From a virus (Duplodnaviria > Caudoviricetes): a DNA stretch of 61,273 nucleotides. This document shows, one piece after another, positions 5,151 through 36,346 of this stretch. Numbering within the stretch: position 1 is the first letter of the stretch; each line of letters opens with the position of its first letter. The DNA lies in IMG/VR virus record IMGVR_UViG_3300033145_000471, positions 1-61,273 of that record. One strand, given 5' to 3'. A program made the translations under genes and the position numbers. The notes under the pieces were generated by a model, which saw only the letters and a list, made by a program, of their open reading frames with translations, made no database searches and was not told the origin of the DNA.

Positions 5151-5267
5151 ATGCCAGAAATCCGCTGTAAAAAATGTAACCGGTTACTAATGAAGGGCTG
5201 GATCGTGAAGGTCGAGATCAAGTGCCCGAAATGCCACAACATCATGATGTTCGAGGAAGAAAAATAA
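5151..5267 (+). CDS. com: Mu Com-like zinc-finger RNA-binding regulator (38 aa, not in the ORF track)
   Basis: MPEIRCKKCNRLLMKGWIVKVEIKCPKCHNIMMFEEEK matches the IRC..CN.LL...IKCP.C Com signature; AAGGA RBS. Confidence 0.85.
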   Translation: MPEIRCKKCNRLLMKGWIVKVEIKCPKCHNIMMFEEEK

Positions 5268-5278
5268 CACTGTAAGCT

Positions 5279-5321
5279 GAGCGGCGCGACCGCCCACGAC
5301 ATAGAGAGCTTTTCGAGAGCC
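5279..5321 (+). promoter_or_regulatory. Tandem 16-nt RNA hairpin motif (putative Com boxes), pair 1
   Basis: GA-GCGG-CGCGA-CCGC-C (5279-5294) and GA-GCTT-TTCGA-GAGC-C (5306-5321). Confidence 0.75.
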
Positions 5322-5358
5322 GAGCGAGATAGGTTAATCCCTGTCCGCTCGGCTTTTC
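5318..5358 (+). terminator. Intrinsic terminator overlapping the second hairpin
   Basis: AGCCGAGCG...CGCTCGGCT stem followed by T-run. Confidence 0.7.
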
Positions 5359-5377: not shown

Positions 5378-6184
5378 ATGTCAGAAGAAATCGTGAAGGA
5401 TATACCCGTTGAAAATCTGGAACGCCGGTTTGTGCCGCTTGCTGAAATCGAACTCCGCGCCGGGGAAGGTGATACGCCGGTCATCGAAGGCTATGCGGCC
5501 GTGTTCAACAAATGGGGATCGGAAGCCTATGGTTTCCGCGAGAAGATCGCCCCCGGCGCTTTCAAGAAAACAATCAAGGGCGGCGATGTTCGGGCGCTTT
5601 TTAATCATGACCCTAATCACGTCCTCGGCCGCCAGAGCAACGGCACGCTCACGCTGAAGGAGGATGACAGGGGACTGTCGATGCATACGGATATCAACGC
5701 CGATGACCCCGACGCCATGAGCGTATACGCCAAAGTGAGGCGCGGCGACGTCAACGGGCAGTCGTTCGGATTCGTGGTGAGAGAAGAAGAATGGAAGTAT
5801 TTCGACGACGACACAAAACTGCCCGAACGCATCATCCGTGAAGTTGATCTGTTTGATGTCGGGCCGGTAACGTTCCCGTTCTATGAGCAGACCGACGTTA
5901 CGGTTGCCCTGCGGTCGCTCGAAAGAAACAGGCCGCAGAATGACGACGACGACAAAACGGATACCCGCGAATTACTGAACGCAATAGGATCATTGCCGGC
6001 AGAAAACCTCGCAGAGCTTCGAGACGCAATTAATACAAGACTCGAATCAATAAATCCCGGGACCGTGCCCACGCCGGCCCAGGACGATAACCCCGACGAC
6101 GAACCCACGCCCACGCTGGACGCCAGACGGATAGCGCAATTACGGCGCATATGGAACCGCAAACGCAAAACCGAAAAAGCATAA
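5378..6184 (+). CDS. HK97-family prohead protease
   Basis: IEGYAAVFN, FREKIAPGAF, LFNHD, SFGF, VTFPFY. Confidence 0.95.
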   Translation: MSEEIVKDIPVENLERRFVPLAEIELRAGEGDTPVIEGYAAVFNKWGSEAYGFREKIAPGAFKKTIKGGDVRALFNHDPNHVLGRQSNGTLTLKEDDRGLSMHTDINADDPDAMSVYAKVRRGDVNGQSFGFVVREEEWKYFDDDTKLPERIIREVDLFDVGPVTFPFYEQTDVTVALRSLERNRPQNDDDDKTDTRELLNAIGSLPAENLAELRDAINTRLESINPGTVPTPAQDDNPDDEPTPTLDARRIAQLRRIWNRKRKTEKA

Positions 6185-12677: not shown

Positions 12678-12691
12678 CCGCAACAGCCTTT

Positions 12692-12732
12692 GAGCGGTTC
12701 GACCGCCATATAGATAGAGCTATTCAATAGCC
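12692..12732 (+). promoter_or_regulatory. Tandem 16-nt RNA hairpin motif (putative Com boxes), pair 2
   Basis: GA-GCGG-TTCGA-CCGC-C (12692-12707) and GA-GCTA-TTCAA-TAGC-C (12717-12732). Confidence 0.75.
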
Positions 12733-12765
12733 GACTTTACCGCATTACGCGGGGGTCGGCTTTTT
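12729..12765 (+). terminator. Intrinsic terminator overlapping the second hairpin
   Basis: AGCCGACTT...GGGTCGGCT stem followed by TTTT. Confidence 0.75.
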
Positions 12766-12782: not shown

Positions 12783-13514
12783 ATGGCAAAAGAAGTTTTA
12801 ACCAGTGTAAAGATTCTATACCAGCAATACGACCTGACAGGCGATCTGAACCAGGCGACGCTTCGGCTGCTGAAAGACGCGAAGGACTCCACGGTATTCA
12901 ACAGTTCGTCGATAGCCCGGCTTTCGGGTATGCGGGCGGTGGAGGCCACATTCGCGGGCTTTGCCGAGCATGACACCGGAAAGGTGAGCAAGGTCATTTA
13001 CGATGATCTCGGCACGGCGGACAGAATATTCACGTTTTGCCCGACCGGTTACGCGACAGGGGACTACGTGTACAGCACCAAAGCGGCGCATTTCCGCTAC
13101 GAGGAGGGCATGGAGGTCGGCGAGATGTATACGTTCGGCGGCGCGATGCTTTCCGGCGGTACGGCCATCGTTCGCGGGCGTGTAGCCGCAACCGGCGCGA
13201 AAACAGCATCGGGCGACGGCACAGCTTATGAACTCGGCGCCCTGACCTCAGGCAAAACGCTTTACGCCGCGGTGCACTGCACGGCGGTAAGCGGTTCAGG
13301 CCCGCCGACCTGCGACATCAAAATCCAGTCCGACGACGCCAGCGGTTTCGCAACGCCGACAGACCGCATCACGTTTTCAACTATTACGAATTCGGCGACC
13401 GCCGAATGGAGCACGTACACCACAACAACGGCAGAAACCTGGTGGCGCGCGACGTGGACGATTGCGGGCACCGTCCCAAGCTACACAATCTATGTCATCA
13501 TGGCAATACAATGA
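12783..13514 (+). CDS. Tail tube-like protein with an extra C-terminal beta-sandwich domain
   Basis: N-terminal half is paralogous to the next ORF (MAK.VL...DL...ARLSG). Confidence 0.6.
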   Translation: MAKEVLTSVKILYQQYDLTGDLNQATLRLLKDAKDSTVFNSSSIARLSGMRAVEATFAGFAEHDTGKVSKVIYDDLGTADRIFTFCPTGYATGDYVYSTKAAHFRYEEGMEVGEMYTFGGAMLSGGTAIVRGRVAATGAKTASGDGTAYELGALTSGKTLYAAVHCTAVSGSGPPTCDIKIQSDDASGFATPTDRITFSTITNSATAEWSTYTTTTAETWWRATWTIAGTVPSYTIYVIMAIQ

Positions 13515-21995: not shown

Positions 21996-22115
21996 ATGGG
22001 GAATTGGGTTTGTCGGCATTGGAAACAGATAATCGCTTTTGAAATCGCCCTCATGGTCATCGCCGTCATTTACGGCATCGTGACGGGCGGATTCGCGGAA
22101 ACGGGGTATTACTGA
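21996..22115 (+). CDS. Small single-TM protein (39 aa, not in the ORF track)
   Basis: GGAGG RBS; MGNWVCRHWKQIIAFEIALMVIAVIYGIVTGGFAETGYY. Confidence 0.55.
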   Translation: MGNWVCRHWKQIIAFEIALMVIAVIYGIVTGGFAETGYY

Positions 22116-30216: not shown

Positions 30217-30486
30217 ATGAGGTCGATCAACTTAACCGAATATCGGGAAACTGCGCCAGACGGCGAATGGTATATCGGCACAGCACGTGGAGTGTTTCTT
30301 GTCGCTTGGGTTGATGCCCAATACTGGGTTGGTACGAAAGAAGGAAACGGTGGATTCGGCCAGTCGTTTTGTTGCCACGGAAATGACACGCTGTATTCGA
30401 CTCGCAACGCGGCGCAACAAGCCCACGATGATTACACAAAAAAACTGAACGATTATATGAAATCTTTTGAAACGGCACAATCCTGA
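30217..30486 (+). CDS. Hypothetical protein
   Basis: AAGGAG RBS downstream of the promoter. Confidence 0.6.
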   Translation: MRSINLTEYRETAPDGEWYIGTARGVFLVAWVDAQYWVGTKEGNGGFGQSFCCHGNDTLYSTRNAAQQAHDDYTKKLNDYMKSFETAQS

Positions 30487-30644
30487 GGGGCGGGGCGAAA
30501 GCCCTGTTAAAGGACACGGCGAGTCCCAAGTCTCGCCAATCTTTGAAAATCAAATAACGCGCCCCGTGCAAACGAAATCGAAAGTGACGGGACAACAGGA
30601 CGCGCACCCCGGCGGATGTTGTAGAAGTACAGCAAGGAGAAAGA

Positions 30645-30860: not shown

Positions 30861-31048
30861 AACAACGTGACTGGCCGACGTACATACGGGGCCTGATTGA
30901 AAAGGCGGGTCTCACCCAAGCGCAGTTCGCCCGTGAGATCGGCGTCGATCAGGCAACGGTCACGCGCTGGCTGAACGGATCGACGAAGCCGCGGGCGGGG
31001 CTGACGCAGAGGGCCGTGGTAAATTTTGCCAAAAAGATTGGGGGGTGA
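30857..31048 (+). CDS. XRE-family HTH regulator
   Basis: GLTQAQFAREIGVDQATVTRWLNGSTKP. Confidence 0.9.
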   Translation: MKQRDWPTYIRGLIEKAGLTQAQFAREIGVDQATVTRWLNGSTKPRAGLTQRAVVNFAKKIGG

Positions 31049-31349: not shown

Positions 31350-31605
31350 AACGTGACTAAAAACGTGACTAATCCGCTTTGTTCACTAAGTATGTTCAGA
31401 TGAAAACCAGCGCAAAACGTGACTACGGGCACAAAAGAGGGGCCGCTGATTGGCCCCTTGCTGCTTGTAAGTCCTTGTTTTTTAATGGTACCGGGAACGG
31501 GAATCGAACCCGTACAGGCTTTCACCCCCGAGATTTTAAGTCTCATAGAAAGAGTAACAATAACAACGTGATACAGACAGCACGGTCACGCTGTTAGTCA
31601 CGAAT
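31348..31605. mobile_element. attP with integrase arm-type sites
   Basis: AAAACGTGACTA at 31348, 31360, 31414; inverted copies at 31584 and 31594, flanking a tRNA fragment next to the int stop. Confidence 0.85.
31486..31544 (-). other. attP core: 3' half of tRNA-Leu(UAA)
   Basis: Minus strand GAGA-CTTAAAA-TCTC, long variable arm, GGGTTCGATTCCC, ends ACCA; 5' half absent. Confidence 0.88.
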
Positions 31606-32643
31606 TGCCCTTTTCCGTGGTAATTTGTGTACCTTTTCTGGGTGGTAATACCCTTCTGTGACGCGAAATGTCGAATGGTCAAGGTAGTTCATCACCTCAA
31701 TAGGGTCGGCGCCTTCGTTCAGGCTGTCGGTCGCGAACGCATGGCGAAGCGTTTTCATCGGCAGGCTGTCGGGCAGACCCGCTTTTCGTCTCCAGCGGAG
31801 AAACGTTTTCGACAGCGTGTCGCGGCGGCAGATGTTGAACGGCTGGTTGCCGCGTTTCGTTTCAATGAAGTAACGAAATTCCTCCTTCACCTCTTCCGGT
31901 ATCTCCTTCCAGCGTTTTCTCTGATCGCTCATTTTTACATTCATTGGGCGAAATAACCCTTTCTCCAAATCCACATCCTTGCGCTCCAGTTCGAGTATTT
32001 CCCGTGCCCGCCGGCCGGTGTATGCCAGAATCTTGAATATCCGGACGGCATCCTGGCTGCGGGCCTCTTTCATCGTCTGCCAGAGGATATCCGCCTGTTC
32101 CCGCGTGATGTTCTCGGTCAGGTAATCCGTTTCCCGCACCCGCTTGAACCGCACGAACGGATTGCGCCCGATGATTTCCTCGTCCACAAGGCGGGAAAAG
32201 ATTGCCTGGAGCATCCGCAACCGGCTGTTGATCGTCGCCGGGCGGACGTTACGGGAAGTGAGATAGGTCTTGTACCCCGGGATGTGGGGGCGCGCTGAAA
32301 TATCGGCAAGGGGGAAGTCGGGGCCGAGATAGCCCGTCAGGTCTTTCAGCGCCTCACAGTACTTCTCGATTGTGGTGCCGTGGAGATGGTCGCGTTCAAG
32401 CCGCAAAGGAATCCACTCGGTAAGCCACGTGAGCGTTTCTCGACCTGGGGCGGGTGTCGGGTCAGGTGCAAGGTTTAAGTGGCTTAAAACGGCTCTTTCG
32501 GCTTCTTCTTTCGTGTAATCCGCGACAGTCAGGCCGATGTATTTACCGGAGCGGCGTATTCGTCCATCCTTGGCATACCATGAGAACCACCAGTAGGGGC
32601 TGTCCTTGCGGCGGTAGACTGTGGGCTTTTTGTTCATAGCCAA
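31594..32643 (-). CDS. int: Tyrosine integrase
   Basis: YTGRR..E, K.LRH, LDHST...T..Y catalytic residues. Confidence 0.93.
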   Translation of the reverse strand: MAMNKKPTVYRRKDSPYWWFSWYAKDGRIRRSGKYIGLTVADYTKEEAERAVLSHLNLAPDPTPAPGRETLTWLTEWIPLRLERDHLHGTTIEKYCEALKDLTGYLGPDFPLADISARPHIPGYKTYLTSRNVRPATINSRLRMLQAIFSRLVDEEIIGRNPFVRFKRVRETDYLTENITREQADILWQTMKEARSQDAVRIFKILAYTGRRAREILELERKDVDLEKGLFRPMNVKMSDQRKRWKEIPEEVKEEFRYFIETKRGNQPFNICRRDTLSKTFLRWRRKAGLPDSLPMKTLRHAFATDSLNEGADPIEVMNYLDHSTFRVTEGYYHPEKVHKLPRKRAIRD

Positions 32644-32671: not shown

Positions 32672-32747
32672 TGGTGCCCCCGACCGGATTCGAACCGATA
32701 GTACAGGCTTAGCGGGCCCATGTTCTATCCAGTTGAACTACGAGGGC
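32672..32747 (-). tRNA. tRNA with GCU anticodon on a tRNA-Arg-like body (C33; possibly pseudo)
   Basis: 76-nt cloverleaf GCCCTCG-TA-GTTC-AACTGGATA-GAAC-A-TGGGC-CCGCTAA-GCCTG-TACT-ATCGG-TTCGAAT-CCGGT-CGGGGGC-ACCA. Confidence 0.8.
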
Positions 32748-33984: not shown

Positions 33985-34437
33985 TCACCCAGTTCGTATA
34001 TTTTTTTTCGCGTCCCCCGATTCCTCTGCGCAGACGCGGACCAACTCCCGTATAGCTCGCAACTTCTCGCCCCGCACATTTATTAATAGCCCCGCTATTT
34101 CATGCCGTATTTTCTCATCGGAGCGAGCATGTTCCCCGGGCGTACCTGCCGAGATAGTGCCCTGTAACGGTAGATCGCGCGTAGGGTCAAGCTCGTGATC
34201 GCGGACGGATTCAGGTTCAGAAGGAGGCCCCTTATAGAAATCAGATACCGACACGCCCAGCGCACGGGCTATCCTCTTGACCGTCAAGTTCCCCGCATTT
34301 CTATTCCCGGTCATGATTTTAGACATGTATGAAGGGGATATGCCTGCATCACGAGCAAGATCAACTTGTTTATAAGACTTTCCCATATGAGAAGTTTTAT
34401 AGCCAAGCCATTTACTTATTAGTCCTATAATATCCAT
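33985..34437 (-). CDS. cI: CI-like repressor (XRE HTH)
   Basis: QVDLARDAGISPSYMSKIMTG...IARALGVSVSDF; divergent from the cro-like gene. Confidence 0.8.
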   Translation of the reverse strand: MDIIGLISKWLGYKTSHMGKSYKQVDLARDAGISPSYMSKIMTGNRNAGNLTVKRIARALGVSVSDFYKGPPSEPESVRDHELDPTRDLPLQGTISAGTPGEHARSDEKIRHEIAGLLINVRGEKLRAIRELVRVCAEESGDAKKNIRTG

Positions 34438-34515
34438 AGCTTATCTCTCTTATGAGAAATATTTTGTATAAATATCAAAATAATTGTTGACAAGATAGCG
34501 CATATGAGATATCTT
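34381..34515 (+). promoter_or_regulatory. Rightward early promoter with three operator-like sites
   Basis: TTGACA(34487)-N17-TATCTT(34510); TCTCATATGAGA-like palindromes at 34381, 34446, 34498. Confidence 0.75.
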
Positions 34516-34534
34516 ATACCCCAGATGAACAACA

Positions 34535-34547
34535 GCTCTTTGAAAAC
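34535..34547 (+). promoter_or_regulatory. boxA-like antitermination element
   Basis: GCTCTTTGAAAAC just downstream of the rightward promoter. Confidence 0.6.
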
Positions 34548-34924
34548 TGAAAAGGCGGGTTTTCCTTCCCGGTGGCGGTCGTGCCGCTCTTCCCTCCGCA
34601 ACATGCTGGCATGGAGGACCAACACCAACACGCAACAGACCGGAGAGATCACACCCGCCTTTTCAATAACGACGAAGAAAGGGGCGGGTTTTTCCTGCCG
34701 ATGGCGCTCGAAGCGCTCGTTCGCCCTCGTGTGCAAGCACGGGCGACCAATGCCGACACACTACTGATCGACAGGGTCACACCCGCCCCGCTCAACGCGG
34801 TTTTATAAGAGGCGGTGATCACCGTCAACGGCGCTCGAAGCGCTCTAGCCCCCGCAATGTGCCAGTATGGGGGGGCCACTACCGACACGCTGCAGGTCGG
34901 CGGCGAAACAACCGCCTCTTATAA
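34548..34924 (-). ncRNA. Array of three ~128-nt cloverleaf RNA units, each carrying the 16-nt hairpin motif
   Basis: Closing stems 34548-60/34653-65, 34681-89/34781-89, 34803-16/34911-24; motif at 34574, 34703, 34830; conserved CCA...CC.ACAC.C..C.G linker. Confidence 0.75.
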
Positions 34925-34926
34925 TC

Positions 34927-34955
34927 AATATAACCGCACAACACACATCAGTCAA
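34927..34955 (-). promoter_or_regulatory. Leftward promoter initiating at the edge of the RNA array
   Basis: Minus TTGACT-N17-TATATT; predicted start ~34920. Confidence 0.7.
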
Positions 34956-34978
34956 TATAATTGACAAAGGTTGTAAAA

Positions 34979-35209
34979 ATGGAAACACATACCAACAGAG
35001 TACTCAAGGGCAGAATCGTTACCATGTTTGGCTCTCAGGATGCGTTCGCCCTTGCTGTCGGCGTCAACAATTCTTTCGTCTCTCGCGTGGTCAACGGGTA
35101 TCGAACGCTGACGGACGAGAAGAAGAAGGAATGGGCTGCGAAGCTCGACTGTGAAGTGGGGGAGATATTCCCTGATTCTCTGGTGGCGGACGTGTCACAG
35201 GCACGGTAG
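34979..35209 (+). CDS. cro: Cro-like HTH regulator
   Basis: LKGRI..FGSQDAFALAVGVNNSFVSRVVNG. Confidence 0.75.
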   Translation: METHTNRVLKGRIVTMFGSQDAFALAVGVNNSFVSRVVNGYRTLTDEKKKEWAAKLDCEVGEIFPDSLVADVSQAR

Positions 35210-35314
35210 TACCCCCTTTTCATTTACATAGATCGTGCGGGGGCCGGGTTTTCTCTTTCGCGGAACCACCCGAATCTCCTTTCCCCGGCCTCCTGCACAA
35301 TTAATCTGGGTGAT

Positions 35315-35581
35315 GTGATGAAAATACGGCGGCAGTATTACTCGACAAGTGAAGTCGCAACGATTCTTGGTTGTTCTGCGCAGACCGTCCGCATCTGGTG
35401 TCAGGACGGCACTATCCCCGACGCGATCAAGCCGGGTAAACGCTGGCGCATCCCGGTCACTTCCGAAATATTCGATTCCTCTCCGAAGCATCATGATATC
35501 CCCGATAGTCCGTTCACCCCCGACATGACCGTCGCTGAGTTTAATGCGGCGTATGATCGGTTGAAAGGAGTGACCGCATGA
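35315..35581 (+). CDS. Excisionase-like HTH protein
   Basis: YSTSEVATILGCSAQTVRIWCQDGTIP...GKRWRIP. Confidence 0.8.
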   Translation: MMKIRRQYYSTSEVATILGCSAQTVRIWCQDGTIPDAIKPGKRWRIPVTSEIFDSSPKHHDIPDSPFTPDMTVAEFNAAYDRLKGVTA

Positions 35582-35881: not shown

Positions 35882-36346
35882 GTGTCGCACTCGACGTGGG
35901 AAGACAGTGATTGCCGGGTGATGCTCTACGGCCTGTTTCATCTGGCTGAGGACGGCCCAACGGTCAGGGACACCGCCCGCGCACTTGGAATGTCCGAAAG
36001 CCTGCTTTACAAAATCCTCACCGGCGAGAGACCGCCTGCCCCTGAACTGTTCCCCGCGCTTTTCAACATTACCGGCAAACTCGACATCATCAACTGGTTC
36101 GTAGCGCGGTGCAAAGGTCTCGCGCTGATAGACACCGCCGCTGCCGAGACGAACGGCGATATACGCGATGAAATCGAGGCGCTTGTCGTCGAAGTCGGCA
36201 GGGTAGCCGAACGCCGCAAGGCCGCATATGCAGATGGGCGCATCACCGGCTTGGAGCGCAAGGGTATGCTCGACGCCGCACAAGAGCTGTTCACGACGGC
36301 GAAGCAGCTCATTGAGGAAATCAAGGAGATCGGCTGTGAAGACTGA
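35882..36346 (+). CDS. cII: Phage regulatory CII-family protein (186/P2-like)
   Basis: HTH (ARALGMSESLLYKIL) plus E.G.......ADGRIT..E C-terminal motif. Confidence 0.7.
   Translation: MSHSTWEDSDCRVMLYGLFHLAEDGPTVRDTARALGMSESLLYKILTGERPPAPELFPALFNITGKLDIINWFVARCKGLALIDTAAAETNGDIRDEIEALVVEVGRVAERRKAAYADGRITGLERKGMLDAAQELFTTAKQLIEEIKEIGCED

Follow-up and report, generated by a model that had tools for sequence, protein, structure and literature searches.

Three tandem predicted RNA modules bearing Com-type hairpins lie between the cI-like and cro-like genes of an uncultured temperate phage

The window analyzed here is a single IMG/VR virus record (IMGVR_UViG_3300033145_000471), 61,273 bases long, classed as linear and ~77% complete, and the element under study is an array at positions 34548-34924 that lies between the cI-like and cro-like genes of an uncultured temperate phage. 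The array is built of three tandem direct-repeat units of ~128 nucleotides (nt) that are ~70% alike, fold into one modular structure and carry on the minus strand a short hairpin of the kind found beside com-like genes in other phages. Com is known from Mu-like phages, where it activates translation of a single gene, mom. We consider it probable that the array specifies a structured minus-strand RNA with genuine Com-type hairpins. Going one step further, and here with somewhat less than even confidence, the sequence points to a leftward RNA that would present three Com-binding hairpins, either as a decoy or as a Com-responsive leader.

A tandem array of three covarying modules

Read along the minus strand, the units lie at 34803..34924 (unit 3, the first in the RNA), 34681..34789 (unit 2) and 34548..34665 (unit 1, the last), and each contains a 16-nt box, the boxes being spaced 129 and 127 nt apart. 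The units share an inner layout and differ in the sequences of their stems. In each module a closing stem (P1) leads into a second stem (P2) and from there into a junction bearing a long, G.U-rich hairpin (P3) and the Com-type hairpin (P4), such that a three-way junction sits inside two stacked stems. P1 of unit 3 is a perfect inverted repeat of 14 bp (34803-34816/34911-34924) and P1 of unit 1 a perfect inverted repeat of 13 bp (34548-34560/34653-34665), while P1 of unit 2 comprises 9 bp (GGGGCGGGT/ACCCGCCCC, 34681-34689/34781-34789) and is extended by flanking G.U pairs when the minus strand folds. The initial annotation had described a three-unit tandem array of one architecture with different stem sequences, and we recovered its spacings and its 9-14 bp closing stems, together with the inner stem, the 16-nt box, the variable hairpin and the three linker sequences that it had quoted. 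In the minus-strand fold the three modules abut without a free linker, P1 of unit 1 being followed on that strand by UUUUCAGUUUUC and P1 of unit 2 by UUUCUUCGU. A terminator scan confined to loops of 3-8 nt, which would miss larger ones, found none in the array, where the "loop" of P1 is a 92-nt folded domain.

The clearest case of covariation between the units is P1, which is independent of any alignment. Across the three units its 36 bp are all perfect and include zero G.U pairs, while the outer part of the stem differs between them (unit 1, UGAAAA/UUUUCA; unit 2, GG/CC; unit 3, UUAUAAGA/UCUUAUAA). In unit 3 one G has been lost together with its partner C. Each unit also folds better than 200 of 200 shuffles on both strands, with z-scores of -4.6, -4.6 and -6.2 on the minus strand and of -3.3, -3.7 and -4.4 on the plus strand. 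An alignment of the three units predicts 47 pairs, with standard pairing in 87.9% of cells. The covariation that the initial annotation had proposed to check is present among the three units: both sides change in 14 of the 47 pairs, a number attained by 0 of 500 shuffles (their mean is 7.0) and to be compared with 3-4 in slid controls. These figures lean toward the structure, the consensus (alifold) being derived from the same three sequences. In the annotation's second check, for an already described Rfam family, none matched the array when the window was scanned at the gathering threshold. With Rfam hits admitted up to E 10, positions 34350-35350 gave four chance-level matches, to animal microRNA and small nucleolar RNA families and to one Burkholderia small RNA, all far below their gathering scores.

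By folding energy, the minus strand, which is the sense of cI, is the better RNA of the two. Its unit energies are lower than those of the plus strand by 12.5, 6.2 and 6.1 kcal/mol, it contains 18 G.U pairs vs 7 on the plus strand, and the array as a whole (389 nt) has a z-score of -8.43 vs -4.93. A conserved 20-nt stretch, the "linker" of the initial annotation, is on the minus strand the G/U-rich 5' strand of P3, and P3 forms on this strand only; the plus-strand fold leaves the conserved CA-rich stretch unpaired. P3 comprises 18 pairs, 8 of them invariant, 5 varying on one side only and 3 changing on both sides. Taken alone and compared with 500 shuffles, P3 of unit 1 reaches a z-score of -4.0, with 0 of the 500 as good.

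The conserved box has the form of a Com target

Judged by its sequence, the 16-nt box is a Com-type hairpin, GAG-stem-UUCGA-stem-CC, rather than the T-arm that the initial annotation had seen in UUCGA/CACGA, the 5-nt loop of a stem of 4-5 bp. P4 starts with 5'-GAG and ends with CC, and between them a stem of 3-4 bp carries a loop whose last three letters are CGA. Its minus-strand copies read GAGCGGCACGACCGCC in unit 1 (34574..34589, a variant with the loop CACGA) and GAGCGCTTCGAGCGCC in units 2 and 3, where the hairpin itself, GAGCGCUUCGAGCGCC, occupies 34703..34718 and 34830..34845. The stem is GCGG/CCGC in unit 1 and a compensated GCGC/GCGC in units 2 and 3, such that the hairpin is kept. 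According to PMC6483171, a Mu-like Com protein binds a short hairpin in which GA of the loop is protected, and this hairpin adjoins a structure that blocks mom translation. The native 19-mer given there consists of GA, a 4-bp stem, a loop ending in CGA, the return strand of the stem and CC, and a motif obtained by systematic evolution of ligands by exponential enrichment has the same form (PMC6483171). All three array hairpins fit the degenerate pattern GAGCGSNNCGASCGCC, which is the form of this Mu Com target as described there; that Com would bind them is a prediction.

The pattern GAGCGSNNCGASCGCC has five exact matches in the 61-kb window, where our own calculation for uniform sequence gives a chance expectation of ~0.002. 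The array hairpins, on the minus strand, account for three of them. The other two are plus-strand sites at 5279 and 12692, each of which occupies a gap in the late operon in sense orientation, ahead of a terminator-like hairpin. The box at 5279, which reads GAGCGGCGCGACCGCC, starts 12 nt after a com-like gene (5151..5267, plus strand) encoding a 38-amino-acid zinc ribbon (Pfam PF10122 Zn_ribbon_Com, E 7.7e-8, 32.1 bits against a cut-off of 22.9), the single match to this family in the record. The boxes of 5279 and of unit 1, the latter read on the minus strand, are identical in 15 of 16 letters. The site at 5279 thus adjoins com on its own strand; the array hairpins lie 29 kb from com and on the opposite strand. 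Within the array P4 abuts P2, shares no part with it and overlaps no terminator, and the array would place three candidate Com sites on one putative RNA.

As separate observations, the hairpins of unit 1 and of 5279 have the unusual loops CACGA and CGCGA, and both score poorly against the general Com-hairpin model described below; they may form a sub-class of their own, or sequence may have been copied from one location to the other. A match to TGAAAAGGCGGGT at 30898 falls inside a coding frame and is taken as chance.

Com-like genes of other phages carry the same hairpin

The association between com-like genes and this hairpin extends well beyond the present record. In IMG/VR, the box together with AGAGCTWTTC occurs at four loci (three distinct), each directly after a Com-like open reading frame (ORF), and an alignment of the four Com-like proteins recovered 72 IMG/VR loci. 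Defined as GAG, 3 bp, a 5-6-nt loop ending in GA, 3 bp and CC, a Com-type hairpin lies within 250 nt downstream of the stop codon in 26 of 61 distinct Com-like loci, and in these same 61 loci none was found in the 250 nt upstream and none antisense. Across 50 whole com-bearing records the pattern GAGNNNTWCGANNNCC had 43 matches vs 7 for a reversed control pattern; all 43 are in com sense by our own reading of the table, mostly paired beside com. In the recovered loci, full self-complementarity over the three inner positions was present in 34 of 36 distinct pattern matches. The stem covaries across these 34 hairpins, with GC, CG, UA and AU all occurring at the two inner pairs; as the hairpins were chosen for pairing, their 100% pairing is partly selection, which the variety of their stems is not.

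We built a covariance-type search, model R2, from the 34 com-adjacent hairpins of other phages with zero sequence from the window, and ran it over the whole window with filters off. Five matches had E<0.001, and the top two in the 61 kb are units 3 and 2 of the array on the minus strand (unit 3, 27.4 bits, E 1.7e-6; unit 2, 25.0 bits, E 1.1e-5). The remaining three are late hairpins at 12688 (24.9 bits), 5302 (23.6 bits) and 12713 (19.2 bits), and noise starts with the sixth match, at 12.4 bits.

Both late sites of this phage have a common layout: first the box hairpin, then another Com-type hairpin (GAGCUUUUCGAGAGCC, GAGCUAUUCAAUAGCC), then a terminator-like hairpin and its U run, and finally the next gene. 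Module A (5279..5357, plus strand) contains hairpin 1 at 5279-5294, hairpin 2 at 5306-5321 and the terminator-like stem with its U run at 5319-5357; the terminator stem shares GCC with hairpin 2, and the prohead protease gene starts downstream at 5378. Module B (12692..12765, plus strand) contains hairpin 1 at 12692-12707, hairpin 2 at 12717-12732 and the terminator-like stem with its U run at 12730-12765, the next gene starting at 12783. In minimum-energy folds up to the U run, the 3' half of the last hairpin lies in the terminator stem in 21 of 25 distinct late modules, site B among them, and in three of the four modules lacking this overlap the hairpin tested was the first of the pair. Because the 3' half of the hairpin sits in the terminator stem, hairpin and terminator are alternatives, from which we infer that a protein holding the hairpin would act as an antiterminator. 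Folding of these modules suggests Com-dependent antitermination in late operons.

The unit of a Com-like gene, two Com-type hairpins and a terminator that shares the 3' half of the second hairpin is conserved in many uncultured phages, and for the combination of com gene, two hairpins and terminator we found no Rfam family and no description in our literature searches. In a variant layout (L056 and L392 on the same IMG/VR contig, L384 and L396), the first hairpin lies ~170 nt after com, with another small ORF in between and a TATATAAG-like stretch ahead of the hairpin.

Searches for further copies of the array

Whole units were sought in several collections and by several routes. No further copy of an array unit was found within the record, a blastn search of 34440-34990 against phages gave no match, protein queries with cI and cro found no relatives in IMG/VR, and a whole-unit model (R1) had no match in the four com-bearing records against which it was run. 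The exact 16-nt box has at least 119 single matches in IMG/VR, nearly all of them coding among the matches listed. The P3 motif combined with the box gave 2 matches in IMG/VR, both rejected as chance occurrences in coding sequence, and two canonical hairpins 95-125 nt apart gave 0 there. A three-part pattern had 0 matches in metagenomes; a looser metagenome pattern had at least 120, and nhmmer found no likeness beyond the pattern among the matches listed. Two boxes 98-126 nt apart occurred at least 120 times in genome contigs, from high-GC genomes, with a likeness limited to the poorly chosen pattern among the matches listed. Elsewhere in the window the motif of the P3 5' strand has 10 loose matches, vs 2.6 expected for all matches; one at 22008 lies in a small ORF, and this line of P3-motif matches was dropped.

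Among public sequencing runs, no RNA run was listed as containing the region. One DNA run (X1) contained a small share (0.15) of the sampled words and gave five contig pieces on the window, the longest of 165 nt. One contig contains 42 nt of unit 1 (34551-34592) with one difference and unrelated sequence beside it, and in another the likeness spans 34369-34533 before the sequences part. These pieces, which are too small to use, may point to a relative whose junction differs.

Genomic setting of the array

On its left, the record carries late and structural genes on the plus strand, which by Pfam include the large terminase, portal, prohead protease, capsid and tail completion protein. An integrase gene (31594-32643) and a complete tRNA-Ser (GCT; 32672-32747, found by ARAGORN and by the Rfam tRNA model) follow on the minus strand; this tRNA adjoins the integrase gene within the phage record and could be a phage-borne tRNA or the mark of an attachment site. 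Near the same integrase end, at 30482-30535 on the plus strand, a non-coding stretch ahead of small ORFs matches a type-P5 twister ribozyme (Rfam, 50.3 bits against a gathering score of 37.6, E 1.6e-7).

The immunity region itself comprises a cI-like helix-turn-helix (HTH) repressor gene of 150 amino acids at 33985..34437 on the minus strand (Pfam HTH_3, E 2.1e-8) and, on the plus strand, a cro-like HTH gene of 76 amino acids at 34979..35209 (HTH_3, E 9.9e-5, at 22.7 bits just under the cut-off of 23 bits), an HTH_17 gene after it, and a CII gene of the 186 type (CP76 family) at 35882. Four ORFs that cross the array have no Pfam match. A tblastn search with cI found no match in GenBank phages, and for the large terminase no GenBank phage relative of at least 60% identity was found, the best listed being ~50%; by these comparisons the phage is one without a close cultured relative.

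Promoter-like sites lie on both sides of the array, each identified by consensus match only. The initial annotation had noted a TTGACT-N17-TATATT site at the array's edge, and we located it on the minus strand at 34955..34927, where it matches the consensus at 10 of 12 positions and predicts a start at ~34920, the base of P1 of unit 3. On the plus strand, TTGACA-17-TATCTT at 34487..34515 also matches at 10 of 12 positions and faces the array in the direction of cro. A weak cI-proximal site, TTGTCA-17-TATACA, was read by eye at 34493..34465 and was not flagged by the promoter scan. Operator-like repeats (CTCTTATGAGAAATAT, CGCATATGAGATATCT and CTCTTATAATCAATAT) occur on either side of the array, at 34447-34462, 34499-34514 and 34916-34931, where they coincide in part with the promoter-like sites. 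The rightmost repeat is part of the closing stem of unit 3, and such repeats might permit looping of the DNA across the array by repressor.

A proposed link between immunity and late-gene control

Under the reading that we favor, a minus-strand transcript would start at ~34920 and would either end at the U run after unit 1, giving an RNA of ~385 nt, or run into cI. Its P4 hairpins, free of any terminator and held on stable scaffolds, would present three Com-binding sites and would tie the immunity region to late-gene control. In the late operon, Com binding would favor the hairpin over the terminator and lead to read-through; in our preferred version a decoy RNA would hold Com off these late terminators for as long as the immunity region is transcribed, and in a close second Com would act on a Com-responsive cI leader. 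Sequence alone makes it possible, though doubtful, that a ~385-nt leftward decoy RNA made in the lysogen soaks up Com, the putative opener of hairpin-gated late terminators. We grade a decoy function no higher than this, as a tentative suggestion for which we infer transcription, Com binding and consequence alike. If true, it would constitute an RNA layer of immunity that holds late genes silent both in the prophage and in any superinfecting phage dependent on Com, and that times late expression after induction, once leftward transcription stops.

Several points weigh against this reading. The plus-strand promoter-like site is as good as the minus-strand one and faces the array. A decoy transcribed from the immunity region would also impede late-gene expression of the same phage unless it were off at induction. 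No whole-unit homologue was found among the matches listed from the collections searched, so that all of the covariation comes from three paralogous copies in one record, the same copies from which the alifold structure was derived. The 50 other com-bearing records contain no convincing extra hairpins away from com, which leaves the array without precedent; the exceptions there are non-pairing matches, one imperfect hairpin and one match, at G004:55101, that falls inside a long ORF taken as a tail gene and was judged a chance occurrence. Model R2 is weak for the unit 1 hairpin (12.0 bits, E 0.23), and the 5279 hairpin, with its loop CGCGA, is absent from the R2 list at E up to 10. P3 taken alone is weak in unit 3 (z -1.5, 40 of 500 shuffles as good) and in unit 2 (z -0.7, 103 of 500), and a strand-neutral 5-bp helix (CCUCC/GGAGG, CGCCC/GGGCG, CCCCC/GGGGG) that competes with P3 covaries too. 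The strand asymmetry of P2 is mild, in that 5 G.U pairs and 3 C.A mismatches on the minus strand become 5 mismatches and 3 G.U pairs on the plus strand in the MAFFT register. P1, having no G.U in 36 bp, would form equally on both strands and would also fit a both-strand or DNA-level function.

The wider roles suggested for Com are antitermination in late operons and, through a hairpin copied three times, an action on RNA between repressor and cro. Were the array to bind Com, it would be a viral protein-sponge or protein-responsive RNA at the lysis-lysogeny switch and a direct RNA link between immunity and late-gene control.

Alternative explanations

The rival that survives best, which we nonetheless consider unlikely, is a face-to-face promoter switch, in which the modules would be pause sites, partial bidirectional terminators or insulators that set the reach of the two transcripts and the strength of their interference. 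The Com-type hairpins would then be secondary, or Com would modulate the cI leader late in infection. The convergent promoter-like sites, each matching at 10 of 12 positions, the operator-like repeats on both sides of the array and the CII gene of the CP76 family at 35882 all suit such a switch, as do the perfect Watson-Crick P1 stems, which form on both strands in all units, and the better-than-shuffled folding of both strands. P1 of unit 1, preceded by an A run and followed by a U run, even has the layout of a bidirectional terminator, but a canonical terminator would not enclose 92 nt of structured sequence. The switch also leaves unexplained the two best Com-type matches of the 61-kb window and the extra minus-strand helix P3, and the possible promoter TTGTCA-17-TATACA at 34493..34465 would make the layout divergent. 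If that promoter is real, the pair would be an ordinary divergent one and the array would be a cro leader on the plus strand and an antisense RNA on the minus strand.

A second rival is a plus-strand antisense RNA started at 34487, whose UCGAA loops would pair with UUCGA loops to block the late hairpins, so that terminators form, in the manner of P1 C4 and P4 CI. This we hold to be improbable. It can draw on the plus-strand promoter-like site, on the conserved CA-rich stretch that is unpaired on this strand, and on the 16-nt complementarity, with one G.U, of unit 1 to the box at 5279. The initial annotation had reported this link to the late box and had suggested an antisense role. The complementarity is there, as it had stated; the antisense role is unsupported because, once the array is read on the minus strand, its box and the late box form one and the same hairpin with the same polarity. 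The link, real in itself, appears better explained by a common Com-type hairpin. The two compensated stem positions of units 2 and 3 point in the same direction: the change from GCGG/CCGC to GCGC/GCGC keeps the hairpin and breaks complementarity to both late hairpin-1 sequences, which fits a protein site and not an antisense RNA. In addition, the plus strand folds less well and has a poor U run after unit 3, and membership in the C4 or c4-2 families, which the initial annotation had raised, drew no Rfam match across 34350-35350 at E up to 10.

That the array works at the level of DNA, as protein-binding or cruciform DNA (for example, additional repressor sites that permit looping, or a signal for replication or packaging) with incidental RNA folding, strikes us as decidedly improbable. 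The perfection of P1, with zero G.U in 36 bp, and the resemblance of the outer P1 of unit 3 to the operator-like repeats near both promoters would suit it, but P2 and P3, which depend on G.U pairs, and the strand-specific Com-type hairpin would be meaningless in duplex DNA. The inverted repeats of the array are 92-94 bp apart, which is not the usual layout of operators.

We give slightly less credence still to a selfish or decaying repeat, either an insertion resembling a miniature inverted-repeat transposable element (MITE) or tandem duplicates of the late Com module, having no present function. Terminal inverted repeats, a MITE-typical size and the failure to find a homologue elsewhere are in keeping with this, and the near-identity of the unit 1 hairpin to the 5279 box would fit copying from the late module. 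Against it, MITE ends are conserved between copies and the array ends covary, the units have neither the second hairpin nor the terminator of the late module, and no other copy was found in the record or, among the matches listed, in the IMG/VR, metagenome and genome collections.

The tRNA-like cloverleaf RNAs processed by RNase P that the initial annotation had proposed, on the strength of UUCGA in a hairpin loop and units closed by a long terminal stem, are largely refuted and hardly credible: ARAGORN and the Rfam tRNA model are negative at the array, their single tRNA in the window being the tRNA-Ser at 32672-32747, and Rfam hits admitted up to E 10 across 34350-35350 include none that is tRNA-like. 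Two stacked stems enclosing a three-way junction do not make a cloverleaf, and the loop has 5 nt and not the 7 of a T-loop (UUCRANY).

Comparison with known systems

Several characterized systems share some features with the array, and we first set aside one that does not fit. ToxI-type antitoxin RNAs of type III systems consist of ~36-nt near-identical tandem repeats ahead of a toxin gene; this candidate was rejected, the present units being ~128 nt long, ~70% alike and flanked by HTH regulator genes. In coliphage 186, the promoters pR and pL stand face to face and overlap over ~62 bp of unstructured sequence. The present phage likewise has convergent promoter-like sites between repressor and lytic genes and a CII gene of the 186 type; unlike in 186, the overlap would be ~430 bp and filled with three folded modules. 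The immunity RNAs C4 of P1/P7 and CI of P4 act by antisense pairing and are processed by RNase P. Under the reading proposed here, the array would resemble them as a non-coding RNA of the immunity region acting on phage transcripts, and it differs in having no Rfam C4 match and in a link to the late site that is same-sense identity, not complementarity.

Further parallels come from RNA hairpins that are bound by proteins. Lambda N, a small phage protein affecting termination, binds at nut sites to boxB, a hairpin whose 5-bp stem is capped by a pentaloop. The array and late hairpins likewise combine a short stem with a pentaloop, a small phage protein as the putative binder and termination; the loop sequence, the protein and the position are others, and no N-like protein was identified in this phage. 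BglG, SacY and LicT act at ribonucleic antiterminator (RAT) sites, where protein-dependent antitermination operates via a hairpin overlapping a terminator. In the late module, similarly, a hairpin predicted to be protein-bound shares its 3' half with the terminator stem, with the differences that the protein family and RNA motif are others and that the array hairpins overlap no terminator. CsrB and RsmZ, which bind CsrA, and CrcZ, which acts on Hfq/Crc, are host sponge RNAs with many short hairpins. If the array is a decoy it would resemble these in carrying several copies of a regulator's hairpin on one stable RNA, the binding here being predicted, and it would differ from them as an element of a phage immunity region with three large modules of one site each.

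The closest likeness is to the Com/mom system of Mu. There, too, a gene for a small CCCC zinc-ribbon protein (PF10122) lies just upstream of a short hairpin, whose 3-4 bp stem is preceded by 5' GA and followed by 3' CC and whose loop ends in (C)GA, and this hairpin stands beside a competing inhibitory structure that Com opens (PMC6483171). In Mu the neighboring structure hides the mom start codon and Com controls translation (PMC6483171), whereas in the present phage and its IMG/VR relatives the neighboring structure is an intrinsic terminator (21 of 25 modules). Also unlike in Mu, the array hairpins are far from com, on the opposite strand and three in tandem, each set in a scaffold of ~110-122 nt. 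On the sequence comparisons made here, the array appears to be a new arrangement of a known kind of protein-binding hairpin, as yet without a family of its own, for which we propose a putative function in linking lysogenic immunity to Com.

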